NCBI GenBank assembly: GCA_017410455.1
Contig: JAFQQT010000027.1
Location: 15,028 to 79,027, forward strand
Source: Clostridia bacterium
GTDB lineage: Bacteria; Bacillota; Clostridia; Christensenellales; Aristaeellaceae
Direction: 5' to 3'
Length of the DNA: 64,000 nucleotides
The first letter of the stretch is position 1, and each line of letters starts with the position of its first letter. The translations under genes were made by a program, and so were the position numbers. A model generated the notes under the pieces. It saw only the letters and a list, made by a program, of their open reading frames with translations. It was not told the origin of the DNA and made no database searches. Of this stretch, positions 10,038 to 61,055 are shown one piece after another.

Positions 10038-11171
10038 TCAGTCCGCCGGGTAGTATTCGCCGTAAATGAACTCGTGCAGGGCCTCGACGTTCTCCTGCAG
10101 GCGCTTGCTGGTGCGGAAGGCCACCACCGACGCGCCGGAGGAGGTCTCATCGTATTTCCAGGTGCCGTCCAGGGGGATGCGGTTCTGCTGCAGCAGGGGC
10201 TCGCCGGAACCCACGCGGTCCAGCAGGCCGCTGCCCAGCACAACCATGGCCAGGTTGCCCATGTCGGACAGGCTCATGTTGGTCTTGGCGTAGGGCAGGC
10301 AGGTCTCCAGCAGGCCGAAGAGCTTGTCGAAGTCCATGCCGCCCTCGGTCACCTTGCGGAACAGCAGCTCCAGCAGGTTGCGCTGGCGGGCGGAGCGGGC
10401 AAAGTCGTTGTCGATGGAGCGCAGGCGGGCGTACATGACGGCCTGGATGCCGTCCAGGTGTTGCACGCCGTCCACCTTCTCCAGCGGCACGCGCTCATAA
10501 TCGTCGCCCTGGTTGTCATAGGCCGGGGGATTCTTGCGGATGTAGGTGTTGATGGCGCCGGCTTCCTGGCGGGTCAGCTCGATGTCGATGCCGCCCAGGC
10601 TGTCGATGATGGAGGCCAGGCCGTAGAAGTTGATGACGATGTAGTGCTCGATGTTCATCTCGAAGTTGTGGTTGATGGTACGCATGGCCAGTTCACCGCC
10701 GCCGCGCTGATAGGCCACGTTGATGCGGTTCTTGCTGACGTAGCCGGGGATGGTCACGTACAGGTCGCGCAGGATGGAGGTCAGCTTGATCTCGCCCGTG
10801 TCCTTGTTGATGGACACGATGATCTGCACATCGCCATGCTGGTTGGAGCCGTCAATGTCCTCCGTGCGGCTGTCGATGCCGATGAGCAGGATGTTGACCA
10901 CATTGTCCGGCAGGTTCTCGTTGATCTCCAGGTTGCCCACGTCCACCGTGTCGTCGATCTCCGCATCCAGGATCTCCACGGTTTCCTTCAGGTCATCGGG
11001 GATCACGAAGCCCTCGATCTCCTCGCCGTCCTCGTTGATGGCCACGCCATCCACCACCACGATATCGCCTTCGTCCAGCTCATCCGGCAGCTCCATCTCG
11101 CCCAGGGCGGTCACGCCCAGCAGCAGGGTCAGCGCCAGCAGCAGCGCGGTCAGCTTCTTCATCATGTTCAT
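10038..11171 (-). CDS. LytR-CpsA-Psr (LCP) family cell-envelope phosphotransferase
   Basis: N-terminal signal/anchor and the NILLIGIDSR motif. Confidence 0.85.
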   Translation of the reverse strand: MNMMKKLTALLLALTLLLGVTALGEMELPDELDEGDIVVVDGVAINEDGEEIEGFVIPDDLKETVEILDAEIDDTVDVGNLEINENLPDNVVNILLIGIDSRTEDIDGSNQHGDVQIIVSINKDTGEIKLTSILRDLYVTIPGYVSKNRINVAYQRGGGELAMRTINHNFEMNIEHYIVINFYGLASIIDSLGGIDIELTRQEAGAINTYIRKNPPAYDNQGDDYERVPLEKVDGVQHLDGIQAVMYARLRSIDNDFARSARQRNLLELLFRKVTEGGMDFDKLFGLLETCLPYAKTNMSLSDMGNLAMVVLGSGLLDRVGSGEPLLQQNRIPLDGTWKYDETSSGASVVAFRTSKRLQENVEALHEFIYGEYYPAD

Positions 11172-13534: not shown

Positions 13535-13555
13535 AGAACACGAAAATCGCATCCA

Positions 13556-13639
13556 CCGCTGGGGGTGCGGCACGGGAAACCGCCGCCGCTGAGATACACC
13601 CTTGGAACCTGTGTAGGTCATCCTACCGTAGGGAAGCGG
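13556..13639 (+). promoter_or_regulatory. TPP (THI-box) riboswitch
   Basis: CTGGGGGTGC...CTGAGATACACCC..GGAACCTG...GGTCATCCTACCGTAGGGAAGCGG matches the THI element. A GGCA-ATTCG-TGCC hairpin followed by GTTTT lies just downstream. Confidence 0.85.
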
Positions 13640-13792
13640 GGCAATTCGTGCCGTTTTCGTGTAGATCCGGACTACAGGAAAACCCCGAATGGCCATCCTG
13701 CTTTCCCGCGTACACACGCGGGTTTTTCATTTGCGTAAGAGTCGGGGAAACTCCGGCTTGACAGGATGCGTCGCAAAGGAGGATTTTCACCC

Positions 13793-14464
13793 ATGAACGA
13801 GTTTTTTGCCAACATGTTTGAAGACGTGGCCGAGATGTCCGTTGGCGGCTGGCTGCTGATGGCCGTGCTGCTTGCGGGCGGTATCGCCGCCTTCGTGTTT
13901 CTGCGCCGCAGGACCGGCAAGTCCTTCTGGACGGCCCGCACCATGTCCGTGGGCGCAATGTGCATGGCCCTGGCCTCGGTGCTCAGCCTCATCAAGCTCC
14001 TGCCCATGCCCATGGGTGGCTCGCTTACCCCTGCCAGCATGCTGCCTCTGCTGCTCTTCGCCTATGTGTACGGCACCGTCCCCGGTCTGACGCTGGGCGC
14101 GCTCTACGGCGTGATGCAGTTCATCCTCGATGGCGGCCAGTGGATCTGGACGGGTGCGATCCCGAACCTGCTGGACTACCCCATCGCATTCGGCCTGCTG
14201 GGTCTGGCCGGCCTGTTCAACCGCATGGAGAACGAGAAGAAAGGCCTTTCCCTCGGCTTCCTGCTGGGCTGCTTCGGCCGTTTCCTCGCCTCTTTCACCT
14301 CTGGCGTGGTCTTCTACGCCGAGTGGGCGCCCGAAGGCATGCACCCCGCCGTGTACTCTGCCGGGTATAATGCCGCCTACATGCTGCCGGAGTGCATCCT
14401 GTGCATCGCTATTGGCATCTTCATCGCGCCGCGCCTGGTGCGCGAGCTGCGCAAGGTCAGGTAA
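13793..14464 (+). CDS. thiT: ECF-type thiamine transporter S component (ThiT-like)
   Basis: Polytopic membrane protein containing PMGGSLTPASMLPLL. It sits directly behind the TPP riboswitch. Start taken at MNEFF after AAAGGAGG. Confidence 0.75.
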   Translation: MNEFFANMFEDVAEMSVGGWLLMAVLLAGGIAAFVFLRRRTGKSFWTARTMSVGAMCMALASVLSLIKLLPMPMGGSLTPASMLPLLLFAYVYGTVPGLTLGALYGVMQFILDGGQWIWTGAIPNLLDYPIAFGLLGLAGLFNRMENEKKGLSLGFLLGCFGRFLASFTSGVVFYAEWAPEGMHPAVYSAGYNAAYMLPECILCIAIGIFIAPRLVRELRKVR

Positions 14465-14476
14465 ACATGCTTCCCG

Positions 14477-14507
14477 GAGCCGCGTCCGCAAAAGGCGCGG
14501 CTCTTTT
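14477..14507 (+). terminator. rho-independent terminator after thiT
   Basis: GAGCCGCG..CGCGGCTC followed by TTTT. Confidence 0.6.
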
Positions 14508-14589
14508 CCTGTTTTTGCGCAGGATTTTCCCGCCCCCGCGGCGAAAGGTTATCCACATTCCATCCATCAACACGCAGGAGGACTCCCCC

Positions 14590-15510
14590 ATGCTTGACAT
14601 CTGCACCCTGGGCACCGGCGGCACCATGCCCCTGCCCGACCGCGCCCTGTCCGCGCTCTACGTCCGCGTGGGCGGGCGGAGCCTGCTCATCGACTGCGGC
14701 GAGGGCACGCAGGTGGGCGTACAGAAGCTCGGCTGGGGCATGCAGTGCATCGACGGCATCCTCATCAGCCACTACCACGCCGACCACGTTTCCGGCCTGC
14801 CGGGGATGCTGCTGGCGCTGACCAAGGCACAGCGCCAAGAGCCGCTGCACATATACGGCCCCGTGGGGCTGCCCTACATCGTGGGCGGGCTGCGGGTCAT
14901 CGCGCCGCAATTGTCCTTCCCCATCGTGCTGCACGAACTGAAGGAGGATCTGTCGCCCTTCCACATCATCGGGCTGGAGGTCACGCCCTTCCCGCTGGAT
15001 CACGGCATGCCCTGCCTGGGGTACCGGCTGCACCTGCCCCGCGCGGCGGTCTTTGACGCCGAAAAGGCGCGGGCGGCCGGCGTCCCCGTCCCCCTGTGGA
15101 AGCGCCTGCAAAAGGGCGAAACCGTCACCGAGAACGGCCGCACCTTCACCCCGGCGGACGTGATGGGCGCGCCCCGCCCCGGCATCACCGTCCTGTGCGC
15201 CACGGACACCCGCCCCGTGGACGCCATCCCCGACCTGGGCTTCCGCTGCGACATGATGATCCTGGAGGGCATGTACGGCGCGGAGGAGAAGTACCCCCTC
15301 GCCCTCAAGAACCACCACATGCTCTTCCGCGAGGCCGCCGCCCTGGCCCGGGACGCCGAAGCCGGTCAGCTGGTGCTGACCCACTTCAGCACCAGCATCG
15401 AAGCGCCGGAGGATTTCCTGCCCAACGCCACGGCCATCTTCCCGGACACCGTCTGCGCCACAGACGGGCAGACGTGGACGCTGCGCTACCCACAGGGCGA
15501 TAGTAATTAA
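14590..15510 (+). CDS. rnz: ribonuclease Z / MBL-fold hydrolase
   Basis: Trimmed to MLDICTLGTGG at 14590 (AGGAGG RBS). ISHYHADHVSG motif. Length 306 aa. Confidence 0.7.
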   Translation: MLDICTLGTGGTMPLPDRALSALYVRVGGRSLLIDCGEGTQVGVQKLGWGMQCIDGILISHYHADHVSGLPGMLLALTKAQRQEPLHIYGPVGLPYIVGGLRVIAPQLSFPIVLHELKEDLSPFHIIGLEVTPFPLDHGMPCLGYRLHLPRAAVFDAEKARAAGVPVPLWKRLQKGETVTENGRTFTPADVMGAPRPGITVLCATDTRPVDAIPDLGFRCDMMILEGMYGAEEKYPLALKNHHMLFREAAALARDAEAGQLVLTHFSTSIEAPEDFLPNATAIFPDTVCATDGQTWTLRYPQGDSN

Positions 15511-15621
15511 TCATGAATTATGAATTAGGAATGTATCCTGCGGCACGGCCTTTACAAGCCGGCACAACACTCCAAATTCATCATTCATAATTCATAATTC
15601 ATAATTCATAAGTCATAATTA
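15505..15621. repeat. AT-rich module pair forming a long inverted repeat
   Basis: AATTAATCATGAATTATGAATTAGGAATG at 15505-15533 faces CCAAATTCATCATTCATAATTCATAATTCATAATTCATAAGTCATAATT at 15572-15621. Confidence 0.8.
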
Positions 15622-16231: not shown

Positions 16232-16700
16232 CGAATACCAGCGCATCCGCAGGGGCGACTATCAGCCACCCGCATGCCGCATCACCCGATTGTCGCTAAG
16301 GGGCGCACAACGCCAGGCTGCTGCGCATCAGCGCTGCCCTCTGACGACCCACATCGCCGCAGGACACCTCATCACCGCCTGCGGGCGGAGTTTCCCCTCA
16401 AGGGGAAGCCGGGGAAGAATCCGTGCTGGGCAGCTGAAGGCTCTCCCTCAGGGAGAGCTGTCCCGAAGGCACCGAGAGGGGGCTCCCGGCAACGCGCAAC
16501 CATGCCACAGTCCCACGCGGGCGCAAGCATGACCGAAGGCACTCTACTCAATCGCGAGCCGGGTCCAGCGTCACGCTGGTGTCATTTCAGACGCGAAAAT
16601 GTATCTTTGGAGCAAAGCCTATGGCCAAACCCTGTGGCCTGTGCTATACTGCAAGCGTGGTAAGAACCCGGGAAACCCCCGGTAACCCTTGAAGGAAGGA
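16232..16700 (+). repeat. composite GC-rich intergenic repeat (contains the C module and the CTATCAG hairpin)
   Basis: GGCGACTATCAGCCACC hairpin near 16253. CACCTCATCACCGCCTGCGGGCGGAGTTTCCCCTCAAGGGGAAGCCGGGG at 16365-16414. Confidence 0.75.
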
Positions 16701-25042: not shown

Positions 25043-25918
25043 ATGGGTGCATGGAGCGTTTCCATTACCGGCAATGACACAGCGCGTGACCTGCTCACCG
25101 AGTATTCCGCCGCCTTCAGCCGCTACGCCCCCGCAGAGGCCGTCGCCCTGCTGGACGCTTATGTCCGCCGGGATTTCCGCGCCGGCCCCGGCGACGAGGA
25201 CTGGGTGGACTACCGCTACTCGCTGGCGCAGTTCATGTGGAAGAAGGGCGTGCTGACCGATGCAGTCCGGGACGAGGTCATCGCCATGATCGACCGGGGC
25301 GAATGCCTCGACCTCTACGAGGACGCCGCCACCCTGCGCAAGCGGCAGAAGGTGCTGGCGGAGTTCCGGGCGCAGCTGCTCTCCCCGCAGCCGCCGCGCA
25401 AGCCCATCCGCGTCAGCCGCGCGCAGATGACCCTGCCCTACGAAGTGGGCGACGTGATCGCCATGCGCCTGCACACGGCCGCATGCCGCACCGAGTACCA
25501 CCGCCCCCGCCTGTCCGCAGAGGCCTTCCGCCAGCTGGACGGCCAGTGGTTCGTCTGGCAAATGGTGAAGGCGCATGTGTCCTGGCGTTCCGCCGTTGTG
25601 CCGGAAGTGTTCGACGTGTGGCCGTATTACCGGATGTACGCCGCCGTCTTCCCGGAGGTCCCCACCCTGGCGCAGCTGGCGGACGTGCCCTTCGTGCGCT
25701 ACAGCGACGTATGGCACCCCACCGTCCGCACGGCGCTGATCACCGGCAACAACACCCACACGGGCTACCGCAGGCGCGAGGCGCAGCTGATCGGGCGCGT
25801 CGATGTGACGCTGCCCCGGGGCGAGGCATACAACGAAACGATGATCCTCCCCGCCTGCCTGCCCCCGACCTTCGAGACCGACGCGGAGATCGCCTGCCTG
25901 CTCTACGGGCGGCAGTGA
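25043..25918 (+). CDS. hypothetical protein, DUF4259-like N-terminus
   Basis: MGAWSVSITGNDTARDLL resembles the MGAWG..FDND.A.D start of DUF4259 as I remember it. Confidence 0.45.
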   Translation: MGAWSVSITGNDTARDLLTEYSAAFSRYAPAEAVALLDAYVRRDFRAGPGDEDWVDYRYSLAQFMWKKGVLTDAVRDEVIAMIDRGECLDLYEDAATLRKRQKVLAEFRAQLLSPQPPRKPIRVSRAQMTLPYEVGDVIAMRLHTAACRTEYHRPRLSAEAFRQLDGQWFVWQMVKAHVSWRSAVVPEVFDVWPYYRMYAAVFPEVPTLAQLADVPFVRYSDVWHPTVRTALITGNNTHTGYRRREAQLIGRVDVTLPRGEAYNETMILPACLPPTFETDAEIACLLYGRQ

Positions 25919-25929
25919 ACGGCGGACAG

Positions 25930-26562
25930 GCCCGGAACGGTTGCAGGGGCGGATATCAGCCGCCCGCATCACCGCTGTTCCGGATGGCCGCAAAGGCTCG
26001 CGCCACATCGCACAATCCCTTCCCGCCACGCCCACCTCATCACCGCCTGCGGGCGGAGCTTCCCCTCAAGGGGAAGCCGGGGATGCCCGGGCGGGCGCGT
26101 TCCTTTGCGGGTTGCGCGTTGGTGCGGCATGCGGGAGAGGCAAACCCTCCCCTACGGCATGGGGGAGCGAAACAGAACGGAGCGTCCGTAGGGACGGCTA
26201 TCAGCCGCCCGCCTCGCGCCTGCCCCGGATTGCCGCAAGGGCGCATACCGCCTCACACCCCATGCGCCCGCTTGCCGCTGTTCCGGATGGCCGCAAAGAT
26301 ACGCACCGCCTCACGCACCGTCAGACCGCTGCAGCGCCCCGCCGCCGCATGACACCTCATCACCGCCTGCGGGCGGAGCTTCCCCTCAAGGGGAAGCCGG
26401 GGATGCTCGGGCGGGCGCGTTCCTTTGCGGGTTGCGCGTTGGTGCGGCATGCGGGAGAGGCAAGCCCCTCCCCTACGGCACAGGGGGACGGATCAAGCCG
26501 GACGCCCGCGCTCCCCATCAGCCCCCGCCATCCAAATTCATAATTCCTAATTCATAATTCCC
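25930..26562 (-). repeat. composite intergenic repeat, two tandem ~300-320 bp units ending in the AT-rich module
   Basis: C/D module at 26033-26140 and 26353-26460. CTGTTCCGGATGGCCGCAAAG appears twice. CTATCAG hairpins. AT module at 26532-26562. Confidence 0.85.
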
Positions 26563-26575
26563 GCTTCCTCCCACG

Positions 26576-26606
26576 CAAAAGGGCCTCTCCACCTTCGGAG
26601 AGACCC
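26576..26606 (-). terminator. rho-independent terminator of the 26612 gene
   Basis: Minus-sense GGGTCTCTCC-GAAGGT-GGAGAGGCCC followed by TTTT. Confidence 0.65.
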
Positions 26607-26611
26607 TTATT

Positions 26612-27151
26612 TCAGTCCGGCAGCGCCTCCAGCAGCTGCAGGCTGCGGATGTGCCATCGGCCATTTTCCTTGACCATCTGCACCTGATAGCGGGCGCTGA
26701 CCCACCCCGGGGGGTAGATCGCGTCGTCGCCATAGACGGCGATGTACTCCTCCGCCTTGGCGCCCTTGATGCGCCCGTCAATGCGGGGGATGCGCTCGAC
26801 GATGATGACCCTGGCCGTGGTGTCCCAGGGCCAGACCCAGGTGAAGCCCATTTCCAGCCGGTGGTCGATGCCGCGGACGTTGTAGTCCCGGTAGGGCGAG
26901 AGGCCGTTCAGGGTGTCCTGCACCGCCTGATCGCGGGAGAGGAAGCTCGCCTGGAAAAACTTGCTCAGCTCGCTCACGTCCTCCTGCATCATCACCACCT
27001 GCGCGCGGCGGGCCATGCCGTCCTTGAGCACGACGTACATGTTGGTCATGTTCATCGCGTAGTAGAAGCTGACGACCATCATGCCCAGCACGATCGTCGC
27101 AATCAGCAGCCGGGTCGCGATGTGCCAGATGAGCCGGCGGATGTATTTCAT
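26612..27151 (-). CDS. hypothetical membrane-anchored protein
   Basis: Start chosen at MKYIRRL, 9 nt after AAGGAGG. One TM helix. No recognised domain. Confidence 0.5.
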   Translation of the reverse strand: MKYIRRLIWHIATRLLIATIVLGMMVVSFYYAMNMTNMYVVLKDGMARRAQVVMMQEDVSELSKFFQASFLSRDQAVQDTLNGLSPYRDYNVRGIDHRLEMGFTWVWPWDTTARVIIVERIPRIDGRIKGAKAEEYIAVYGDDAIYPPGWVSARYQVQMVKENGRWHIRSLQLLEALPD

Positions 27152-27211
27152 GCCCATCGTCCTCCTTTCCCGCATTGTCGGTCAGAGATACAACGCCGCA
27201 GCGGGCGCTTT

Positions 27212-27808
27212 TCATGCATCGGCGGCGCAGTTTTCCAGTTCGGAAAGCATCCAGGCTTCCGTGGCTGCCATGGCGCGGATGGTCCTCTCCAGCAGCGTAT
27301 CGAGCTCCCATCCCAGCATCTCTGCGCCCTGGCGGATGGTGTCGCGGCTGCAGCCAGCGGCGAACTTCTTGTCCTTGAACTTCTTCTTGAGGGAGGACAG
27401 CTCCATGTCCGTGGTGGACTTCGAGGGCCGCATCCTTGCCGCCGCGCCGATGAGGCCGGTCAGCTCGTCCGCCGCGAAGAGCACCTTCTCCATCTCGTGC
27501 TCGGGCGCCACCTCGCTGCAGATGCCCCAGGCATGGCTGCACACCGCATGGATCAGCTCGGCGGACGCACCCAGCTGCTCCAGCAGGGGGATGCAGGCCG
27601 TGCAGTGCTCATCGGGCCACATCTCGAAGTCGATGTCGTGCAGCAGGCCCACGGTGGCCCAGAAGTCTGCGTCCGCGCCGTAGCCCAGTTCATTGGCGTA
27701 CCAGCGCATCACGCCCTCCACGGTCAGCGCGTGCTGGAGGTGGAAGGGCTCCCTGTTGTATTGCTTGAGGCCAGCCAGGGCGGCCTCGCGGGTGATGTTG
27801 GCGGTCAT
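27212..27808 (-). CDS. HD-domain phosphohydrolase
   Basis: TVGLLHDIDFEMWPDEH motif. Confidence 0.7.
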   Translation of the reverse strand: MTANITREAALAGLKQYNREPFHLQHALTVEGVMRWYANELGYGADADFWATVGLLHDIDFEMWPDEHCTACIPLLEQLGASAELIHAVCSHAWGICSEVAPEHEMEKVLFAADELTGLIGAAARMRPSKSTTDMELSSLKKKFKDKKFAAGCSRDTIRQGAEMLGWELDTLLERTIRAMAATEAWMLSELENCAADA

Positions 27809-27829
27809 GGTGATTCATCCTTTCGTGGT

Positions 27830-28407
27830 ATGTTGTCGTGCCCGCAGGCGGGAGCCTTTGGCATGTGGTGCCGGGGATTTCTCCGGAAATCCGGTTCAGT
27901 CCGGAGGGCGAAAAGCCGCCCTCTCCGGGGGAGGTTCGTTCCTTTGCGAGGTGTGCGTTGGTGCGGCATGGGGCGGAGCGAACCGGAACGGAGCGTCCGC
28001 AGGGGCGGCTATCAGCCGCCCGACACGCGTCTACCCCGGATTGCTGCAAAGGCGTACACCGCCTCACACCCCACGCGCCCGCTTGCCGGCTGTTCCGGAT
28101 GGGCACAGAGGCATGCACAGCCTCACACATTTCTCTTCCCCCGCAAGACACCTCATCACCGCCTGCGGGCGGAGCTTCCCCTCAAGGGGAAGCCGGGGGA
28201 GATGCCGGGGCGGGGGCGTTCCTTTGCAGGTTGTGCGTTGGTGCGGCATGGGGGCGGAGCGAACCGGAACGGAGCATCCGCAGGGGCAGCTATCAGCCGC
28301 CCGCCTCGCTGCTGCCCCGGATTGCTGCAAAGGCTTGCGCAGCGGGCTGCCCACCCCCGTCCCCACCAGCTAAATTCCGAATTCATAATTCATAATTCAT
28401 AATTCCC
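27830..28407 (-). repeat. composite intergenic repeat, two tandem ~282 bp units ending in the AT-rich module
   Basis: D module at 27937-27974 and C/D module at 28149-28254. GGCGGCTATCAGCCGCC hairpins near 28003 and 28285. AT module at 28371-28407 abuts the NYN gene stop. Confidence 0.85.
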
Positions 28408-29406
28408 TTATAGGAGCTTGATCAGCATCGTCCGCTGCTCGTCCATCTCGACCTCCACCAGGCCGTCCTTCTCCAGCTGCTTCATCACATCGGAGAAGCG
28501 CTTGAAGCCGATGGCGCGCTCGTTGAAGCCGGGGTAGGTGGTGAGGATGTCCGCCTTGAGGATGGAGGGGTTCACGCGCTCGAAGCCGCCCTCCTTGTAG
28601 GCCTGGAGCTGGGCGGCGAAGGCGTCGCGCCAGTTCTCCCGGGTCAGCTGGGACTGGGCCTCGGCAGCGTCACCGCTGTTCAGGCGCACCATCACGTTGA
28701 AGTTGTCGTTCGTCACGTGGATGTCTCCGAACCGGCTGGCCAGGCGCGTCAGGAGCTTGTAGAAGGACGCGCAGCCGTAGGTCTTCTCATTGAAGTCCGG
28801 GCGCAGGCGGGTCAGCACGCCCTTGAGCTCAGAGGCGTACATCTCGTCCATGCCGCTGGACTCGTCCACGATGGACACCACCAGCTTGTTCAGCTCGGCC
28901 TCGTCCGCGGCCTCCTCGCTCACGGCAGCGGCGGTGCGCTGCTTCTTTGCGCGGGCGGGAGCGGCGGCCTTGCGGCTCATGCCCTCCAGGAACTGGAACT
29001 CGTTGCACGCGTTGATGAACACATTGCTGGCGGCTTCCGAGCGGCTGATGCCCAGGACGAACTTGCCCATCGACTTCAGCTTGCCCACCAGGGGGACGTA
29101 GTCGCTGTCGCCGGACACGATGCAGAAGCTGTCGATCAGCGGGTTCGAATAAGCCACGGACAGCGCGTCGATGACCAGCTGGATGTCGGCATTGTTCTTC
29201 TGGGCGATGCCGTAGCGCAGGCTGGGCACAACGGTGAAGGTGTTGGAGAGCAGCGTCTCCTTCAGGGCGGAGAAGCGGTCGGTGTAGCCGTAGACCATGC
29301 CCAGGAGGATATCGCCGCGGATCTTGACCTTCTCCAGCACGCTTTGCAGGGTCTCCACCCGCGCGCCGCAGTTCTCCAGGTCGATAAACACAGCAAATTT
29401 TGCCAT
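28408..29406 (-). CDS. NYN-domain (PIN-like RNase) protein with C-terminal OST-HTH/LOTUS-like region
   Basis: Track ORF trimmed to MAKFAVFIDLEN at 29406. CIVSGDSDYVPLV motif. Confidence 0.8.
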   Translation of the reverse strand: MAKFAVFIDLENCGARVETLQSVLEKVKIRGDILLGMVYGYTDRFSALKETLLSNTFTVVPSLRYGIAQKNNADIQLVIDALSVAYSNPLIDSFCIVSGDSDYVPLVGKLKSMGKFVLGISRSEAASNVFINACNEFQFLEGMSRKAAAPARAKKQRTAAAVSEEAADEAELNKLVVSIVDESSGMDEMYASELKGVLTRLRPDFNEKTYGCASFYKLLTRLASRFGDIHVTNDNFNVMVRLNSGDAAEAQSQLTRENWRDAFAAQLQAYKEGGFERVNPSILKADILTTYPGFNERAIGFKRFSDVMKQLEKDGLVEVEMDEQRTMLIKLL

Positions 29407-29438
29407 TGTGATGATCCTTTCTTGTCGAATTCGCCGCC

Positions 29439-30155
29439 TCAGATGCGGAAGGTGAACCGGTCGCCCCGGATGACCTGGCAGGAGGTGTGCAGCGGCGAGC
29501 CATTCTGGTTGAAGATGATCTGGTTGAGCATCAGCAGCGCGTCGCCGGCGTTCACGCCCAGCAGACGGGCCTGGGCGGGGGTGGCGTAGCAGAGGCTGAT
29601 CTCGTGGATGCCCCGGGTGGGCAGCATCCCCCGTGCCTCCAGCAGGGTGTAGAGCGAGCCATCCAGGTCCGCGTCCAGCAGCCAGCTGCAGCCGGGGCCG
29701 AAGCAGTTCGTTTCCAGCATGACGGGTTCGCCATCTGCCGTGCGCAGGCGGGTGATCTCCACGCACTGCCCCTCCGGCGAAAGGCCCAGATCCGCGCGGA
29801 CCGTTGCATCCGGGGTGGTCATGCGGGCGGAAATCAGGCGCGTGCCCGGCGTGCGGCCCGTCAGGCGGCAGGCCTCATGGAAGCTGATGACGTCCCGCAG
29901 GCTCTGGCTGATGCGGGGTGCGCACACGAAGGTGCCCTTGCCCTGCATGCGGCGCAGCAGGCCCTCCCGCGTCAGCTCCGCCAGCGCCTTCCGCACCGTG
30001 ACCCGGCTGACCCGGTAGGTCTGGCAAAGCTCCGTTTCGGAGGGGATGCGGCTATGGGGCGGGTACACACCCCCGGCGATATCGTCGCGCAGGCGCTCCA
30101 TCAGCTGGCGATAAAGGGGACTGGCGCTCTCGTTGACGAGCATGTTTGCGTTCAT
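29439..30155 (-). CDS. GntR-family regulator with UTRA effector domain
   Basis: Trimmed to MNANMLV (AGGAGG RBS). HTH PSETELCQTYRVSRVTVRKALAEL. Confidence 0.85.
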   Translation of the reverse strand: MNANMLVNESASPLYRQLMERLRDDIAGGVYPPHSRIPSETELCQTYRVSRVTVRKALAELTREGLLRRMQGKGTFVCAPRISQSLRDVISFHEACRLTGRTPGTRLISARMTTPDATVRADLGLSPEGQCVEITRLRTADGEPVMLETNCFGPGCSWLLDADLDGSLYTLLEARGMLPTRGIHEISLCYATPAQARLLGVNAGDALLMLNQIIFNQNGSPLHTSCQVIRGDRFTFRI

Positions 30156-32214: not shown

Positions 32215-32575
32215 TCATCGGGGAGGGATCCTTGGGTGTGCGCTTGTGCGGCCGGGTGAATCAAGCAGCATGAGGCTGGTACGGGGCTGTTGTGGGGGGC
32301 GTATTTCCCGTTGACTGTGCGGGCATGCCGCATGCAGGCAACCAATGGTCGCCCCTACGGGGACACACGCCACCTCACGCCCCGACGGCGGCGTATTTCC
32401 GTTGACTGCGCAGTCATGCCGCATGCGGGCCGCTGACAGCCACCCCGACAAGGCTTCCGGCTCATCCGGCCTCTCCTGCGCCCCGCCCCCACCATCCAAA
32501 TTCATAATTCCTAATTCCTAATTCATAATTCCTGATCCTCCCCCGTCCCCACCATCCAGATTCCGAATTCAAAAC
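32215..32575 (-). repeat. composite intergenic repeat with one full and one partial AT-rich module
   Basis: Internal direct repeat GGCGTATTTCC(C)GTTGACTG..CATGCCGCATGC. AT modules at 32496-32538 and 32556-32575. Confidence 0.75.
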
Positions 32576-32623: not shown

Positions 32624-34063
32624 TTACTGCAGCATGGACACCGCGTCGCTGATGGTCTTCTCCACCGCCTCGCGGCCGTAGCGGTCCACCGCAGCGGCGT
32701 TCTTGTCGCCGTGGGTCAGGCAGCCCGCGCCGTTGATGCAGCCGCCCAGGCAGGCCATGCCCTCGATGAAGTTGCCGCCCAGGATCTTGGGGTTCTTCGA
32801 GAGCTTGAGCAGCGCCATGCGGCACTCCTCGATGCCGCTGCAGACCACGGGCCTTGCCTCGAAGTCGATGCCCTGCTCCTTGAGCGCCTGCGCCACGGCC
32901 TCCGACAGGCCGCCCACGCGGGCGAAGATGCGGCCGAAGTAGCTGGCGTTGTCCAGCACGTCCTCGGGCAGGTCGCTGATCTCGATGTCCCGGCTGTCAA
33001 AGAGCGCCTGCAGCTCCTCGAAGGTCATCACAGCGTCCACATAGTCCTTCACCGTGTCCAGCTGGCGCTCAGCCTTCTTGGCCGTGCAGGGGCCGATGAA
33101 GACGACCTTGGAGGTCGGGTCGGTGGACTTGATGTACTTCGCCAGGGCAGCCATGGGGCTGAGGTTGTGGGAGACGAAGTCCGCCAGCTCGGGGAAGGCG
33201 GTCCTGATGTAGCGCACGAAGGCGGGGCAGCAGGAGGAGGTCATGGCGCCCTTCTCGGCCACCTTCTCCACCAGCTCCTGGCTCTCGGTCATGGCCACCA
33301 GATCCGCGCCCAGGGCCGCCTCGATGACGGTGTGGAAGCCCAGCTGCTTCATGCCGGTGATGGCCTGGCCCACCTTGGCGTGGCTGAACTGGCTGGAGAA
33401 CGCCGGGGCCACGATGGCGTAGACCTTGTAGGCCGTGTTGCCCTGGGAGCCCACCAGCATGCTGATCACGTCCATGATGAAGCTCTTGTCCTGGATGGCG
33501 CCGAAGGGGCACTGGTACACGCACGCGCCGCACTGGATGCACTTCTCATCGTTGATGGCGGCGGCGCCGTCGGGGCTGATGTCGATGGCCTTGATCTTGC
33601 AGGCCAGCTGGCAGGGGCGCTTGCGGTTGACGATGGCGCCGAAGGGGCAGACCTTGGCGCACTGGCCGCACTCGACGCACTTGCTCTTGTCGATGTGCGC
33701 CACATGCTGGTGGTCAAAGGAGATGGCCTTGCGCTTGCACACGTCCTCGCAGCGGTTGGCAAGGCAGCCACGGCAGCTGCCCGTCACCTCGTAGCCCGCA
33801 GCAGGGCACTCATCGCAGGCGATGTCGATCACCTCGATGATGTTGGGGTTGGCGCGGTTGCCGCCCATGGCCAGCTTCACCCGCTCGCCCAGGATCGCCC
33901 GCTCCTTGTACACGCAGCAGCGCATGGTGGGCGTTTTGCCCGGCACGATCACCTTGGGAATCTCCAGCACCTCTTCCGGGGTCAGGCCGTCCCAGGCCCG
34001 GCGGGCCACCTCACGCAGCACCTTGTACTTGAGGTACTGGACTTTCGTATCAAACTTTCTCAT
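32624..34063 (-). CDS. [FeFe]-hydrogenase catalytic protein (short, group-B-like)
   Basis: H-cluster motifs TSSCCPAFV, GPCTAKKAE and EGMACLGGCINGAG. Ferredoxin motifs CVECGQCAKVCP and CIQCGACVYQCP. Confidence 0.85.
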   Translation of the reverse strand: MRKFDTKVQYLKYKVLREVARRAWDGLTPEEVLEIPKVIVPGKTPTMRCCVYKERAILGERVKLAMGGNRANPNIIEVIDIACDECPAAGYEVTGSCRGCLANRCEDVCKRKAISFDHQHVAHIDKSKCVECGQCAKVCPFGAIVNRKRPCQLACKIKAIDISPDGAAAINDEKCIQCGACVYQCPFGAIQDKSFIMDVISMLVGSQGNTAYKVYAIVAPAFSSQFSHAKVGQAITGMKQLGFHTVIEAALGADLVAMTESQELVEKVAEKGAMTSSCCPAFVRYIRTAFPELADFVSHNLSPMAALAKYIKSTDPTSKVVFIGPCTAKKAERQLDTVKDYVDAVMTFEELQALFDSRDIEISDLPEDVLDNASYFGRIFARVGGLSEAVAQALKEQGIDFEARPVVCSGIEECRMALLKLSKNPKILGGNFIEGMACLGGCINGAGCLTHGDKNAAAVDRYGREAVEKTISDAVSMLQ

Positions 34064-37895: not shown

Positions 37896-38355
37896 CCTGA
37901 CAGGCCGATCCCTCCGGGGGTGATACCTGATCAGCCCCGATCGTGGGGGGTAAGGGGGGCAGGACAGAGCGCAGCGATGGCCTGACCGATCCCACCGGAG
38001 GTGATAAGGCACAGGCCGAGCGCAGCGACAGCCTGATCAGGCCTCCCCCATCAAAGGGGAAAGGGCACAGGCTGAGCGCAGCGATGGCCTGATCAGGCCT
38101 CCCCAATCAAAGGGGAACAGGCGCAGGCCAAGCGCAGCGATGGCCTGATCAGGTCTCCCCAATCAAAGGGGGAAAGGGCACAGGCCGAGCGCAGCGATGG
38201 CCCGATCAGGCCTCCCCAATCAAAGGGGAAAGGGCGCAGGCCAAGCGCAGCGATGGCCCACCCCCACCAACGGTGGCAAGGCAAGCCCATCGCAGCGCCC
38301 CCATCCCATCCCCACCCGATCGGTGGAAAGGGGTACCAGCCGAGCTCCGCAATGG
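37896..38355. repeat. tandem array of about 9 units of ~56 bp
   Basis: Units start at 37896, 37926, 37981, 38032, 38088, 38143, 38201, 38257 and ~38300. Core unit: CCTGATCAGGCCTCCCCAATCAAAGGGGAAAGGGCACAGGCCGAGCGCAGCGATGG. Confidence 0.85.
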
Positions 38356-38369
38356 CCCCGTCCCACAAA

Positions 38370-38404
38370 CCAAATTCCTGATCCATAATTCCTAATTCAT
38401 AATT
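38370..38404 (-). repeat. AT-rich module copy
   Basis: Minus-sense AATTATGAATTAGGAATTATGGATCAGGAATTTGG, directly after the pepM terminator. Confidence 0.8.
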
Positions 38405-38433
38405 AAAACGGGCTTGCCCCGTTGGACAAGCCC
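38405..38433 (-). terminator. rho-independent terminator of the phosphonate operon
   Basis: Minus-sense GGGCTTG-TCCAACGGGG-CAAGCCC followed by GTTTTAATT. Confidence 0.6.
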
Positions 38434-38443: not shown

Positions 38444-39736
38444 TCACTGATTGGGCAGCAGCGTCAGGATCTCTTTAATGGACATGCACAGCTGATCAGC
38501 CTCGCGGCTGCGGCCGTTCTCCAGGATCGACCGGGCCGTGGCCTGCATGGCCGGGAAGGCGCTGCGGATCAGGTGGTTGGCGTGGATGACGACGTTCACC
38601 CCGTGGGCGGCCAGCTCGGCCTCGGTGGCGCCGTTGTAGGTCGTGGGCACGACGATGATGGGCGTCTTCGGGTCCACCCGGCGGAAGGCGTCGCAGAAGG
38701 TGTACACCTCGTCCGGGGTCTTCGACTTGGAGTGGATCATGATGCCGTCGGCCCCGGCCTTCACATAGGCGTGGCAGCGGGTCAGGGCGTCCTCCATCCC
38801 CTGCTCCAGGATCAGGCTCTCGCAGCGGGCGATGATCATGAAGTCGCGGGTCTTCCGGGCGGCCTTGCCGGCGGCGATCTTGTGGCAGAAGTCCTCGATG
38901 CTGTCCTGCACCTGCCCCACGCCCGCGCCAAAGAGGCTGTTCTTTTTCAGGCCCTTCTTGTCCTCGATGATGATGGCGGAGATGCCCATGCGCTCCAGGG
39001 TCTGCACGTTGTATACGAAGTGCTCCACCAGGCCGCCGGTGTCCCCGTCGAGGATAATGGGCTTGGTGGTGACCTCCATGATCTCCTCCAGCGTGCGCAG
39101 GCGGCTGGTCATGTCCACCAGCTCGATGTCAGGCTTGCCCTTGGCGGTGGAGTCGCACAGGCTGCTGACCCACATGGCGTCAAACTGGCGGCGGCCTGCG
39201 GGGGTCTCCACGGCGGTCTTTTCCACGATCAGGCCGGTGATGCCGTTGTGGGCCTCGCACACGCTCAGGCAGGGCTTGCAGCTCAGCAGGCGGCGCAGGC
39301 GGCTCCGGCGGGTCTCCGGCAGGGACAGCAGCGCGTCCAGCGCGGAGAGGGTCTCCTCCGTGGGCGTGTGCGTGTAGGGGAACTCGACGAGCTGTCCGCC
39401 CCACCGGGCCAGCACCTCGATCACCCTCTGGCGGATGTTGGCCTGGTAGCCCACGAGCCAGTCATCCCCGTGGACGACGACGTCCGGCTTCAGCCGGATG
39501 AGGATATCGGTGTAGTCGAGGGTCTCCTGCACCACCACGCGGCTGACGTATTTCAGGCTCTCGAACATCGCCACGCGCTCCTCCAGCGGCAGCAGCGGGT
39601 AATGCTTGTAGCTGGCCACAACCTCGTCCGTCAGGATGCCGACGGTCACTTCGCCCAGCGCCGCGGCCTTCTTGAGGATGGAGAGGTGGCCGTTGTGGAT
39701 GATGTCGGTGGAAAAGCAAATGTAGACCTGCTTCAT
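38444..39736 (-). CDS. aepX: cytidylyltransferase-PEP mutase fusion protein
   Basis: N-terminal HxGH nucleotidyltransferase motif STDIIHNGH. C-terminal PEP mutase motifs ILDGDTGG and IIIEDKKGLKKNS. Confidence 0.85.
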   Translation of the reverse strand: MKQVYICFSTDIIHNGHLSILKKAAALGEVTVGILTDEVVASYKHYPLLPLEERVAMFESLKYVSRVVVQETLDYTDILIRLKPDVVVHGDDWLVGYQANIRQRVIEVLARWGGQLVEFPYTHTPTEETLSALDALLSLPETRRSRLRRLLSCKPCLSVCEAHNGITGLIVEKTAVETPAGRRQFDAMWVSSLCDSTAKGKPDIELVDMTSRLRTLEEIMEVTTKPIILDGDTGGLVEHFVYNVQTLERMGISAIIIEDKKGLKKNSLFGAGVGQVQDSIEDFCHKIAAGKAARKTRDFMIIARCESLILEQGMEDALTRCHAYVKAGADGIMIHSKSKTPDEVYTFCDAFRRVDPKTPIIVVPTTYNGATEAELAAHGVNVVIHANHLIRSAFPAMQATARSILENGRSREADQLCMSIKEILTLLPNQ

Positions 39737-40599: not shown

Positions 40600-40881
40600 C
40601 TCCAGTGCTGCCGCAGGGGCGGGTGTCAGCCCCCTTCGCCGCTGGTTCACGCCGCCGCAGGACACCTCATCACCGCCTGCGGGCGGAGCTTCCCCTCAAG
40701 GGGAAGCCGGGGAGGCGCCGGGCAGGGCGTTCCATTGCGGGTTTGCGTTGGTGCGGCATGCGGGAGGACTGCAGCATAGCAGACCAGCCCAAGCCTCCCT
40801 CCCCGAGGGAGGTAGATTCCTTCGCGGCTTGAAAAGCCGGGTAGGAAGACGGAAGGGGGCCTCCTGCAGGCCTCGCCGGGC
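40600..40881 (+). repeat. composite GC-rich intergenic repeat inside the phosphonate operon
   Basis: C/D module at 40663-40767, then the CCTCCCTCCCCGAGGGAGG hairpin and others. Confidence 0.75.
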
Positions 40882-42099: not shown

Positions 42100-42261
42100 G
42101 TGTCATCACTCCATTGGTTGGTATTCATATCATTATAGCATATCCGGCAGGGTTTGGCTACAGGAGATTTCAGCAGGCAGCAAAAAAGGCCGCCGCACCG
42201 AAGCGCAGCGACCAAACCAGGGTACATTCCAGGACTCCCGAAAACCACCCCAGTCCACAAA

Positions 42262-42294
42262 CCCAATTCATAATTCCTGATTCCTAATTCCTGC
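42262..42294 (-). repeat. AT-rich module copy abutting the capA stop
   Basis: Minus-sense GCAGGAATTAGGAATCAGGAATTATGAATTGGG, starting 1 nt after the TGA. Confidence 0.8.
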
Positions 42295-42295
42295 T

Positions 42296-43471
42296 TCACT
42301 TCTCCTCTCCCCATTCCAGCGGATACTCCGCCACCGCATAGGTCAGGTTCTTGCCGTTCCTGAGGAGGGTGTTGACGACGGCCTCCTTGGAAGAGGCGCT
42401 GTCGTAGGGCGTGGGGGTGAAGTCGTTGCGGTTGGTGCGGGAGGAGATGCGGATGGGGATGATGCGGAAGCCCTCGTTGGCGATGACCTGGCCCTCCTCG
42501 CCCTCGGTGATGCGGAAGCGGGTCTGGAAGAGGAAGGACGTCATGTCATCGGGGTTGTTGTGGCCAGCGAAACAGAAGTTGCCCAGGCTGTAGCAGATGT
42601 ACACGCCCTTGTACTGCTCGATGGGCTGGATGCGGTGGCTGTGGTGGCCGATGACCAGATCCGCGCCGGAATCCACGGCCAGGCGGCCCATCTTGACCTG
42701 ATTGTTCGTGGGGACGTACTCCTTCTCGTTCCCCCAGTGGAAGCTGACGATCACGATGGGGTACTGCGCCTTGGCGGCGGCGATGTCTGCAGGCACCACG
42801 TCCCAGAGCTTCGAATAGCGGTCGATGCACAGGTAGGAGAGCATGGCGATCTTGACGCCCTTGACCTCGTAGACGCCCAGTTCGCCATCGCCGGACCAGA
42901 CCACGCCCGCATCCGTCAGGTGCTGCTTGGTTTCGTCCCACACGGCCTGGCCGTGATCGAGCACGTGGTTGTTCTCCAGCGACACGGCCTCGATGGAGTT
43001 GTCCGTCAGCATCCTGGTGTAGGAGGGCGGCGCGCTGAAGAGGAACTGGTTCTCCCGCTTCTCCGGGGGTACATAGGTGCTCTCGGTCAGCGTGCCCTCG
43101 AAGTTCACGATGGTCAGGTCGTCCTTTTCGAGGATGGACCTGATGTTGCGCAGAGCAAAGTTGGGGTCGCCGCCCTGGCGCTCCAGCTCATCCTCCCAGA
43201 TACTGCCCCGGTCGCGGCTGTCCCCGCCGACGGTGAAATCGCCCGTGGCGGTGATGGTGATGAGGATGGAGCCGTCCTCCTCGTAGAAGCTGGTGAGGGT
43301 CGCTTCCACCTCGATGGCCTGATCCTCCACTTCCTCAGGGATGACGATAAAGGTGTCGAACACCACGTCCGGGTCGGCGTTTTCCATCAGGTCCGCCATG
43401 GACAGCTCCTCCTCCGCAAGGGCCGCGGGGATGAGCAGCAGGCACAGCAGCAGCACGATCAGTTTGCGCAT
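42296..43471 (-). CDS. CapA-family (poly-gamma-glutamate/metallophosphatase-like) secreted protein
   Basis: Signal peptide. GHHSHRIQPIE and YSLGNFCF motifs. Confidence 0.8.
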   Translation of the reverse strand: MRKLIVLLLCLLLIPAALAEEELSMADLMENADPDVVFDTFIVIPEEVEDQAIEVEATLTSFYEEDGSILITITATGDFTVGGDSRDRGSIWEDELERQGGDPNFALRNIRSILEKDDLTIVNFEGTLTESTYVPPEKRENQFLFSAPPSYTRMLTDNSIEAVSLENNHVLDHGQAVWDETKQHLTDAGVVWSGDGELGVYEVKGVKIAMLSYLCIDRYSKLWDVVPADIAAAKAQYPIVIVSFHWGNEKEYVPTNNQVKMGRLAVDSGADLVIGHHSHRIQPIEQYKGVYICYSLGNFCFAGHNNPDDMTSFLFQTRFRITEGEEGQVIANEGFRIIPIRISSRTNRNDFTPTPYDSASSKEAVVNTLLRNGKNLTYAVAEYPLEWGEEK

Positions 43472-51524: not shown

Positions 51525-52898
<1,374 letters not shown>

Positions 52899-52943
52899 AA
52901 GTGTTGCCTCCTTAAAATATGTGAGCATTCTTATCCACGATAT

Positions 52944-52972
52944 AGTATAACAGATGCAGGGGCTTTGTTCAA
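52944..52972 (-). promoter_or_regulatory. argH promoter (inside the repeat)
   Basis: Minus-sense TTGAAC, 17-nt spacer, TATACT. Confidence 0.55.
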
Positions 52973-53001
52973 TCTCTCAAAACAATTTGCGCAATAAAAT
53001 A

Positions 53002-53047
53002 CGATTGAGTGTTGAGCACACAGAGCAACACCCAATCGTTTTCCATA
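53002..53047 (-). terminator. rho-independent terminator of the 233-aa cassette ORF
   Basis: Minus-sense CGATTGGGTGTTGC..GCTCAACACTCAATCG followed by TATTTTATT. Confidence 0.7.
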
Positions 53048-53054
53048 TGGACAT

Positions 53055-53756: not shown

Positions 53757-53789
53757 AATGCAGCCTCCCCATATTGATGAAGTGGTTTA

Positions 53790-53921
53790 TCATGACAGAT
53801 CGATTCCCCGAACGACGAACATGTCCTCCTCGGCCATGCGCTGGTCGAAGGAAATGGAAGAATGGAAATCGTCCATCAGGTGATCGGTGGATTTGGCAAA
53901 ACGGCCGCCCCAGAGTTTCAT
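53790..53921 (-). pseudogene. argH 5' remnant (34 argH codons fused to 9 foreign codons)
   Basis: MKLWGGRFAKSTDHLMDDFHSSISFDQRMAEEDMFVVRGIDLS. It carries its own copy of the promoter and RBS. Confidence 0.85.
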
Positions 53922-53997
53922 AAGTGTTGCCTCCTTAAAATATGTGAGCATTCTTATCCATGATATAGTATAACAGATGCAGGGGCTTTGTTCAATC
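53821..53997 (-). repeat. 177-bp direct repeat, distal copy
   Basis: See 52798-52974. Confidence 0.95.
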
Positions 53998-54023
53998 GGG
54001 TGTGCAAAAAAGATGCAGGGCTC

Positions 54024-54052: not shown

Positions 54053-54072
54053 CAATGCAGGAGGTGATCCCC

Positions 54073-61046: not shown

Positions 61047-61055
61047 GGAATACCA

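Follow-up and report, generated by a model that had tools for sequence, protein, structure and literature searches.

Arrays of tandem heptanucleotides that lie dispersed between genes are known from several bacteria. In Xanthomonas, 183-186 GGGAATC arrays exist per genome, mostly consisting of four units and 89-93% of them intergenic, at a mean distance of 28 nt to the upstream and of 160 nt to the downstream open reading frame (ORF) (Rehm et al., 2015; PMC4692102). Inverted pairs (70-75) occur among them, positions are often common between species with variable length and sequence, ruvA is among the repeat-associated genes, and no regulatory role was found (PMC4692102). Both the Xanthomonas repeats and those of Nostoc PCC 7120, GGGGA(C/T)T, obey a polarity rule, being situated on the coding strand when downstream of an ORF and on the non-coding strand when upstream of one (PMC4692102). 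One passage of that paper mentions heptanucleotides of Calothrix PCC 7601, and another, citing other work, states that heptamer repeats are over-represented in many bacteria, as has been noted since 2007, possibly via polymerase slippage (PMC4692102). Here we analyze a stretch of 64,000 nucleotides (the window) from a Clostridia bacterium of the Aristaeellaceae (assembly GCA_017410455.1, contig JAFQQT010000027.1, positions 15,028 to 79,027), in which 11 copies of an AT-rich module of tandem GAATTAT/GAATTAG heptamers (GAATTAK) stand between genes. With moderate confidence, we interpret them as a family of dispersed intergenic heptamer modules, the Clostridia counterpart of the repeats from Xanthomonas, Nostoc/Calothrix, and Beggiatoaceae, that is, as a spreading repeat which is kept outside ORFs and has a generic cis effect at most.

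Like the repeats of Xanthomonas and Nostoc, the module is dispersed and intergenic, comprises about four units, lies nearer to the upstream ORF, and resides in a GC-rich genome; inverted pairs are present, position is conserved with variable length and sequence, and there is no tie to one gene function. The polarity rule is identical as well, and with the Xanthomonas repeats the module further shares a GGAAT core in its units. In contrast to both, its GAATTAK unit is AT-rich and cannot form a G-quadruplex, only a short tail being G-rich and this without four runs of three guanines (G3x4), its host belongs to the Clostridia, and array plus tail make up a discrete insertion unit adjoining trains of GC-rich repeats. 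G-quadruplex potential, which characterizes only the Xanthomonas/Nostoc subtype and not heptamer repeats generally, was not detected in the module, as no (G3+N1-7)x3 G3+ motif exists within 45 nt after any array and only two-tetrad G2x4 patterns are found in 5 of 10 tails.

Marine Beggiatoaceae, cyanobacteria, and some Bacteroidetes possess TAACTGA direct repeats, most of which are found shortly before starts; stop codons limit their placement, and S1, cold-shock, or CsrA-type proteins have been proposed as their binders (MacGregor, 2015; PMC4679880). The TAACTGA repeats resemble the module in being AT-rich heptamers (2-6 copies) that occupy numerous intergenic sites, are distributed patchily among phyla, are limited in their siting by stop codons in the forward reading frames, and take an orientation-specific position beside ORF boundaries. 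Whereas most copies described here follow stops or terminators, TAACTGA stands in forward orientation immediately before starts; moreover, the unit sequence is a different one and no conserved tail has been described for TAACTGA.

With the STRR heptamers of cyanobacteria the module has in common that both are dispersed, intergenic tandem heptamers, STRR compound arrays passing from one heptamer type into another, whereas lineage and unit set differ. The STRR (short tandemly repeated repetitive) heptamers were reportedly treated by Mazel and colleagues (1990), their arrays are often much longer, and to our knowledge no gene-end rule has been reported for them. A literature search for the literal repeat strings GAATTAT/GAATTAG found no paper with relevant context, and heptamers go unmentioned in a recent survey that covers short tandem repeats from the whole tree of life. 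The AT-rich Clostridia module is new, while its kind, i.e., intergenic heptamer repeats, and its polarity rule have already been published.

Structure of the Module

A sequence-only reading of the window, made without database searches, had listed 11 copies of an AT-rich module in GC-rich DNA. Heptamer arrays do exist at all 11 places, and the contrast in composition is sharp, the arrays having a GC content of 15-44% in a window of 64% GC (60-67% almost throughout). That reading had not recognized that the module consists of tandem heptanucleotides, GAATTAT or GAATTAG with a conserved core, which are joined head-to-tail at exactly 7 nt in arrays of 2.5-7 units. Tandem Repeats Finder detects a period of 7 with 3.4-6.6 units at nine sites (15509-15532, 15575-15620, 26531-26561, 28380-28405, 32495-32533, 38373-38404, 42266-42298, 61011-61044, and 61665-61690), and the copies at 62761-62777 and 32556-32575, which have two units only, were read directly from the sequence. 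GAATTAT accounts for 15 of the roughly 44 units that were read in register, GAATTAG for six, GAATTTG for four, and GAATTGG for two, the rest being single variants. As an example, the plus strand at one site, that of copy D below, reads CTAAATTCCGAATTCATAATTCATAATTCATAATTCCCTTATAGG.

Chance levels were taken from 100 dinucleotide-preserving shuffles, which predict none of the 11 copies. A 27-mer consensus has nine matches in the window with at most three mismatches (0.00 expected), and the 12-mer GAATTAKGAATT has 28 with at most one mismatch (0.08 expected). In at least 7 of the 11 copies a G-rich tail follows 3' of the array on the same strand, with the consensus GAATT[T/G]GG-[A/T]T[G/T]GTGGGGACGGGG, which agrees with the flank consensus given in the sequence-only reading. 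It takes forms such as TGGATGGTGGGGACGGGGG, TGGTTTGTGGGACGGGG, and GGGTTTGTGGAC and, read in register, consists of degenerate heptamers GAATTKG, GWTKGTG, and GGGACGG. The fullest tail, GGWTKGTGGGGACGGGG, has three real matches in the window, all of them adjoining arrays. The whole module, i.e., the array plus the tail where present, measures about 30-55 nt. Copies G and I (see below) are 94% identical over 36 nt, an identity that separate microsatellite births would not yield.

Placement and Polarity

The 11 copies are all located outside ORFs in a window that is 84% coding (P ~2e-9), so that many dispersed copies, 11 in 64 kb, are combined with a strong non-coding bias. Five of them (A, D, G, I, and J) begin no more than 1 nt from a co-oriented gene's stop codon or overlap it, four (C, E, E2, and F) lie 38-85 nt past a co-oriented stop, just beyond a hairpin and T-run, and two (B and H) are inverted and situated 9-16 nt upstream of the start codons of the UDG gene and of ruvA, respectively. 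In all 11 copies it is the 5' end of the GAATTAK strand, and not the 3' end, that lies nearer to an ORF boundary (p = 0.001), which means that the repeat is ORF-proximal on the coding strand downstream or the non-coding one upstream of an ORF. The tail, and any long cluster of GC-rich repeats, is on the side away from that boundary; hairpin trains had indeed been said to extend from the GG side of the module. The sequence-only reading had counted 9 of 11 copies whose polarity agrees with that of the gene ending next to them and had proposed a bias toward gene 3' ends. The count is right and nine copies are in sense orientation at or after a stop or terminator, but the count alone is not significant (two-sided p = 0.065), and three copies, namely B, H, and one between hisB and hisA, stand inverted before starts. 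It is more apt to say that the G-containing strand turns its 5' end toward the nearer ORF boundary. The hisB-hisA copy, a twelfth one just outside the window (10920-10952 of the same-species contig L418), occupies a 63-nt spacer in inverted orientation, and there the 3' end is the one nearer to a gene.

According to Pfam the neighbors encode an MBL/RNase-Z-like protein followed by UDG, NYN/OST-HTH, [FeFe]-hydrogenase, PEP mutase, PGA_cap, RuvC, RuvA, and RuvB proteins, in agreement with the gene names assigned previously (rnz-like, NYN, capA, ruvA, and ruvB), and the stop codons that had been placed at copies A, D, G, I, and J are found there. Copy A (15505-15533, plus strand; AATCATG AATTATG AATTAGG AATG) begins inside the stop of the MBL/rnz-like gene (14392-15510), the TAA of which (15508-15510) falls within the copy, and makes up an inverted pair together with copy B (15572-15621, minus strand), which is the longest array with about 6.6 units and ends 16 nt upstream of the UDG start at 15638. 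Copy C (26513-26562, minus) is composed of an array (26532-26562) and the G-rich tail GGATGGCGGGGGCTGATGGGG, with GC-rich repeats (25919-26512) on its tail side, and lies 49 nt past the stop of gene 26612-27175 after a hairpin and T-run; this hairpin was read from the minus-strand sequence, the terminator scan having flagged that site on the plus strand only. Copy D (28350-28407, minus), with an array at 28371-28407 and the tail TAGCTGGTGGGGACGGGGGTGGG, follows directly after the NYN/OST-HTH gene (28408-29766), whose TAA (28408-28410) abuts it, and has GC-rich repeats (27809-28350) on the tail side. Copy E (32478-32538, minus) possesses a five-unit array (32496-32538) and the tail TGGATGGTGGGGGCGGGG; beside it, copy E2 (32539-32575, minus), with the two units GAATTCG GAATCTG and the tail GGATGGTGGGGACGGGGG, stands right behind the terminator-like hairpin that belongs to the [FeFe]-hydrogenase gene (32624-34063). 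In copy F (38356-38405, minus) the PEP-mutase gene (38444-39736) has a terminator-like hairpin whose T-run is fused with the array, and the tail of the copy, TGGTTTGTGGGACGGGG, faces a 56-nt tandem repeat (37967-38258).

Copy G (42250-42295, minus) lies with its tail GGGTTTGTGGACTGG between the stop of the PGA_cap gene (capA) and the terminator of this gene, the TGA being 1 nt away from the copy as delimited earlier and 4 nt away from the first GGAATT. Copy H (60994-61046, minus) has inverted units of the GAATTCG type, ends 9 nt upstream of the ruvA start at 61056, and is followed on the side of its tail (GATTGTGTGGGCACGGG) by about 430 nt of GC-rich repeats (60568-60993). Copy I (61663-61699, plus), a four-unit array with the tail GGGTTTGTG, sits between ruvA and ruvB, right behind the stop of the former and 45 nt ahead of the start of the latter, the ruvA TAA ending 1 nt before the copy as delimited and 2 nt before GGAATT. 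Copy J (62761-62782, plus), the two-unit remnant GGAATTATGAATTGAGTTTGTG, spans the ruvB stop, with the TGA (62768-62770) inside the copy. Terminator-like hairpins were flagged by the scan on the gene strand before the array at E2/E and at F and after the array at G; those before E2/E and F, together with the hairpin read before copy C, bear out the earlier statement that several minus-sense copies lie beyond the terminator of the upstream gene.

The NYN/OST-HTH ORF (28408-29766; 452 amino acids, GTG start) is probably over-extended, as its orthologues in contigs L427, L428, and L567-L569 comprise 330-332 amino acids; it exemplifies how the scarcity of stop codons in GC-rich DNA inflates ORFs.

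Gain, Loss, and Turnover in Relatives

Same-species contigs originate from several metagenomes (L418-L423 and L549-L566). Contigs of relatives are ranked by RuvB identity (L424, 95%; L425/L426, 91%; L427/L428, 89%) or by hydrogenase identity (L567, 93%; L568, 92%; L569, 91%), and the close RuvB homologues carry the label Aristaeellaceae. The RuvB encoded in the window itself has 100% identity to a protein from a metagenome-assembled genome of an uncultured "Clostridia bacterium". A comparison of orthologous intergenic regions, as the sequence-only reading had advised, uncovers filled and empty sites at capA, ruvA-ruvB, and NYN-HD; between close relatives the module is gained or lost as a unit. 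Behind capA the window has TGA-AGCAGGAATTAGGAATCAGGAATTATGAATTGGGTTTGTGGACTGG-GGTGGTTTTCGGGAGTCC, and L424 and L567 have TAA-GGTGCATTTCGGGAGTCC, so that copy G represents a clean 46-nt insertion right behind the stop that is absent from the orthologous sites, with the downstream terminator and promoter conserved. The ruvA-ruvB spacer measures 74 nt in the window with four GAATTAK units, 54 nt in L424 with GAATTAC/GAATTGA units, and 53 nt in L425 with CATTAAG/AATTAAG units, and it is reduced to 12 nt in L427 and 15 nt in L428, where there is no array. Similarly, the NYN-HD spacer of 600 nt in the window is module-free in L567 (18 nt) and L568 (58 nt), and in L569 (119 nt) it contains (GAAATGC)n units that end in the GTGGGGGACGG tail known from the window, the NYN stop being followed by GCAATTT GAAATGC GAAATGC GTAATTC GAAATGC GAAATTT GAAGTGG GGGACGG. 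The inverted hisB-hisA array of L418 recurs in L425 and L426. Between ruvC and ruvA, the same-species contig L419, which encodes an identical RuvB, has a spacer of about 50 nt that consists of the inverted module alone, whereas the window has the additional 430 nt or so of GC-rich repeats on the tail side.

At the end of ruvB (Met-Glu-Leu-stop; 62756-62770) the window reads ATGGAATTATGA, in comparison to ATGGAGCTGTAA in L424 and L425 (~11020-11035), with GAA TTA TGA in place of the GAG CTG TAA of the relatives for Glu-Leu-stop. The 3' end of this gene is overwritten by the module with rare AT-rich synonymous codons, in a genome with a third-position GC content of about 0.9, and the protein is unchanged. 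Module density is about 1 per 6 kb here, compared with 0-2 per ~12-21 kb sampled from each relative, and therefore the family has expanded in this species. Units turn over at a single site, as is evident from GAATTAK, GAATTAC plus GAATTGA, and CATTAAG at ruvA-ruvB, and variation of length or sequence at conserved positions is observed at ruvA-ruvB, at hisB-hisA, and at the NYN stop, in addition to a length polymorphism of copy B, nine other same-species samples having exactly two units (14 nt) fewer than the window. Since copies G and I are invariant, slippage occurs, but not often, as is expected for short imperfect arrays.

Does the module move as a small non-autonomous mobile element that targets gene 3' ends in a fixed orientation, its array or tail being recognized by an enzyme encoded elsewhere and pairs of the A/B type serving as terminal inverted repeats? 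The clean presence or absence of a 46-nt unit right behind the capA stop, proliferation limited to this species, near-identical copies at unlinked sites, five copies within 1 nt of a stop codon or overlapping one, and a recoded ruvB end with retained protein sequence would all be in line with this, as would the A/B hairpin and the frequency of inverted pairs elsewhere (see below). The A/B pair folds into a long hairpin (z = -3.8); no other inverted pair exists in the window, and the 32-nt core of A/B is unique. Furthermore, filled and empty capA sites reveal no target-site duplication, no transposase, RAYT, or TnpA was seen in the 64 kb, three copies at gene starts have the opposite polarity, and orthologous arrays hold their position while their units drift, which fits repeat evolution in situ. 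On balance we regard such an element as possible but rather unlikely. Active targeting of 3' ends, which the sequence-only reading had entertained, is supported in part only, and nothing in these data demonstrates it or 3'-end formation or RNA processing; neither a transposase nor a target-site duplication was found.

The module resembles REP/BIME elements and miniature inverted-repeat transposable elements (MITEs) in that it is short, non-coding, dispersed, intergenic, often located at gene 3' ends, present or absent between relatives, and clustered with other repeats. It differs from them in being a direct tandem repeat that lacks terminal inverted repeats (apart from one inverted pair) and target-site duplications and has no RAYT or transposase in the window; the GC-rich hairpin repeats beside it look more REP-like. 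The 20-40 nt self-folding palindrome of a REP/BIME is not present in this direct repeat with its asymmetric tail, and the A/B hairpin requires two separate arrays; therefore, the module is not REP-like, as had been concluded earlier. Nor is it a classical MITE, since terminal inverted repeats and target duplication are lacking and arrays stand solo at 9 of 11 sites. Intrinsic terminators do not account for the arrays, which are not hairpins, array F merely continuing the T-run of one. HutP- or TRAP-like triplet-repeat sites, iterons, and telomere-like additions were considered and rejected; copy number and spread speak against a regulator of a single operon.

Related Arrays Outside the Lineage

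An exact scan of viral contigs with GAATTAKGAATTAKGAATT found at least 119 loci at 22-68% GC. Two control heptamers of the same composition have 99 and 87 loci in viral contigs; AT-rich heptamer tandems are thus common in general, and the raw count is uninformative as evidence. Among the matches listed from viral contigs of more than 55% GC, however, GAATTAK has 24 loci versus 1 and 1 for the controls. In metagenomes (at least 120 loci) the units occur in compound heptamer arrays of the STRR kind, with GAATTAT running into GGGGAGT/GGGGTGT units in contigs that are probably cyanobacterial, and in contigs of 60-69% GC, where they often form inverted pairs able to fold into hairpins like A/B of the window. 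A scan of a 596-Gb genome collection employed GAATTATGAATTKGGNTKG, a pattern that is too short, and its 112 listed matches are mostly coding coincidences (e.g., N-Y-E-F-G-W), with about 25 true arrays by eye. Arrays of GAATTAT/GAATTAG/GAATTCG are also present in another GC-rich (58-60%) Clostridia metagenome-assembled genome (Clostridia bacterium RGIG1839, goat caecum; L321, 4046-4490) and at 718-749 of L379. The three arrays of L321 are 200 nt apart, each within one copy of a ~200-nt tandem repeat, so that in that genome the array belongs to a larger repeated unit.

A first pooled census of orientation (39 versus 7) was discarded as biased, two of the search patterns having required KGG at the 3' end of the array. 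The pattern-unbiased census of arrays within 10 nt of a stop gives sense/antisense counts of 14/4, 33/14, 6/12, 6/1, and 5/0, in sum 64 sense versus 31 antisense or about 2:1, while arrays beside gene starts have no orientation preference in this out-of-lineage census. Of 39 post-stop arrays in GC-rich contigs, 25 are followed downstream by a co-oriented gene, and many fill the junction into AGGAG...ATG.

These data bear on two further explanations at opposite ends of the scale. If the arrays were independent neutral microsatellites of separate origins, one might expect other AT-rich heptamer tandems to be as common as they are in viral contigs (99 and 87 control loci), and heptamers are over-represented in many bacteria according to the statement in PMC4692102 quoted above. 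A common non-repetitive tail and up to 94% identity over 36 nt already contradict separate origins, as do eleven copies per 64 kb where 0 are expected, a polarity rule obeyed by 11 of 11 copies, and the near-absence of the controls from GC-rich contigs (1 and 1 versus 24 loci among the matches listed), and we consider this explanation hardly credible. Alternatively, all arrays with a GAAT core, i.e., GAATTAK, the GGGAATC of Xanthomonas, and those of phage and metagenome contigs of 22-69% GC from apparently many phyla, might constitute one pan-bacterial class in which placement and polarity derive from a common machine-level cause and not from lineage-specific selfish DNA. Candidate causes would be a signature of replisome or primase slippage that is coupled to the direction of transcription, or a (GAAUUNN)n tract that interacts with terminating or re-initiating ribosomes. 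We deem this improbable, if less so than separate origins.

Possible Origin and Effect of the Module

How might a spreading intergenic repeat acquire such a distribution? Of 10 arrays, 8 are closed by stops in five or all six reading frames, and because of these stops copies would persist only outside ORFs. Selection or an insertion preference may hold the 5' end of the G-containing strand against the ORF boundary, which would leave an AU-rich, G-containing, and nearly C-free tract after the stop or terminator, or its complement before the ribosome-binding site, and GC-rich REP-like repeats might subsequently build up on the side of the tail. If there is a cis effect, it is probably generic, be it as a 3'-untranslated or intercistronic spacer, through weak AGGA Shine-Dalgarno-like sites, or through weak promoter-like hexamers on the opposite strand. 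For the spread itself, an enzyme, recombination between copies, or gene conversion are candidates.

Several points weigh against this interpretation of the module as a spreading heptamer repeat. Of the six frames, just one contains a stop in copy H and three do in the two-unit copy J, which means that stops in every frame are not universal. No parent element of the module was found, the window holds no transposase, RAYT, or TnpA, and the filled capA site bears no target-site duplication relative to the empty ones of L424 and L567. Array G is invariant across nine samples and array I across six, which implies that slippage is infrequent. The idea of a spacer is weakly supported, arrays being barely less structured than their flanks, with predicted unpaired probabilities of 0.45 and 0.38, respectively, so that a markedly unstructured RNA was rejected. 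The sequence covered from the source genome amounts to about 73 kb. Outside the lineage, the mid-GC class has no sense bias (6 versus 12), the census relies on crude ORF calls, and the G-rich tail was rejected as a general feature, flank composition being symmetric in the pattern-unbiased viral set.

A more specific role would be that of a cis element in the transcript that tunes translation, coupling, or decay by AGGA standby sites, by sites for global RNA-binding proteins (S1, cold-shock, or CsrA type), or by AU-rich RNase entry. AGGA, which is relevant to the GGA sites of CsrA, is carried by GAATTAG units, and GGA is missing from GAATTAT units. The sense bias at stops, the co-oriented genes downstream of 25 of 39 post-stop arrays in GC-rich contigs, many of these arrays running into AGGAG...ATG, and a position kept across species at ruvA-ruvB, hisB-hisA, and the NYN stop despite unit turnover speak for such a role, and a similar proposal was published for the TAACTGA repeats (PMC4679880). 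In contrast, copies C, E, and F follow terminator-like hairpins and have convergent genes or long spacers ahead of them, relatives do with array-free spacers of 12-18 nt, the neighboring genes are functionally unrelated, arrays are hardly less structured than flanks, and Rehm et al. saw no regulatory role for the Xanthomonas repeats (PMC4692102). We therefore judge a dedicated transcript element unlikely, somewhat more so than a mobile element.

Read on the opposite strand, arrays with at least five perfect AATTCAT units (e.g., 32501-32529, plus strand) contain TTCATA-N17-CATAAT, which matches a sigma-70-type promoter in 9 of 12 positions and is directed toward the adjacent gene boundary, so that it points antisense into the upstream gene at post-stop copies and, at inverted copies like B, runs in sense with the downstream gene.

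An element acting at the level of DNA by its AT-rich tracts phased at 7 bp, i.e., a promoter, a site for a nucleoid-associated protein, or an easily melted or structure-forming tract, could draw on the promoter-like match flagged within copy E, on the position of B, H, and the hisB-hisA copy 9-25 nt upstream of starts with the AATTCAT strand as the coding strand, and on the sharp contrast in composition between arrays and window. Most arrays, however, have fewer than five perfect units, the promoter-like strand is antisense to the upstream gene in nine copies, true promoters of the window match much better (e.g., 42160-42132), no G3x4 quadruplex motif exists in the tails, and for a binding protein there is no evidence at all. 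This makes a DNA-level function very improbable.

The spreading heptamer repeat, our preferred interpretation, adds an AT-rich example from a GC-rich, uncultured gut lineage of Clostridia to the known cases, together with filled and empty orthologous sites that demonstrate movement of the module as a unit, and with a hint that the GAATTAT/GAATTAG unit is common in phage and metagenome contigs with a similar stop-proximal sense bias. With this combination, the lineage offers a usable comparative system for studying the spread and polarity of such repeats. In practical terms, modules and neighboring GC-rich repeats coincide with breaks in metagenome assemblies, for example in the ruvC-ruvA spacer, and give rise to long spurious ORFs and mis-called gene ends in annotations.

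Neighboring Repeats and Other Features

Long spacers beside the modules are filled by GC-rich interspersed repeats (16243-16415, 25916-26472, 27925-28369, and 40607-40782), among which are ~120-nt units with CCGCCTGCGGGCGG and CTTCCCCTCAAGGGGAAG hairpins and a 56-nt unit repeated five times in tandem (37967-38258). Related units are encountered in relatives at ~16900-17160 of L568 (four tandem copies) and at 13735-13800 of L427. They give the impression of a system of REP-like or small-hairpin repeats belonging to this lineage, one that has no Rfam family. At the gathering threshold, Rfam matches in the window are limited to a TPP and a glycine riboswitch, with no family for arrays or GC-rich repeats, and a search of 25900-28420 with E-values up to 1 returned nothing credible; tRNAs are absent from the window. 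Among six ruvB-bearing contigs of the same species (L418-L423), five begin inside ruvA or the ruvC-ruvA spacer (~60780-61060) and L419 begins in ruvC; the ruvC-ruvA repeats may thus fragment short-read assemblies.

A 7-bp hairpin at 61038-61054, GTATTCC-GGA-GGAATAC, holds the Shine-Dalgarno sequence of ruvA in its loop and its 3' arm, and the pairing of this hairpin is kept with another sequence, GAGTCC-GGA-GGATTC, at ~215-232 of L419. A hairpin sequestering this site was rejected as a candidate; it is part of the minimum-energy fold, which is no better than that of shuffles (z = -0.15).

An island of low GC content (0.54; 52798-54890) carries two 177-nt direct repeats that are 99% identical (52798-52974 and 53821-53997) and enclose an ORF (53055-53756) for which Pfam has no match. 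Next to these repeats are encoded a Fic/DOC protein (54243-54632), its small upstream partner (54055-54246) with a weak DUF2281 match, and an HTH_3 protein (54660-54890). The island is probably an inserted toxin-antitoxin or mobile cassette, and a Fic pair is found elsewhere, near ruvC, in L425 and L427. The glycine riboswitch (56874-56975, minus strand, 52 bits) is situated upstream of a Na+/alanine symporter gene (55273-56781), and the TPP riboswitch (13551-13651, plus strand, 63 bits) upstream of a region which in the same-species contig L549 encodes a thiamine-transporter-like Thia_YuaJ protein.

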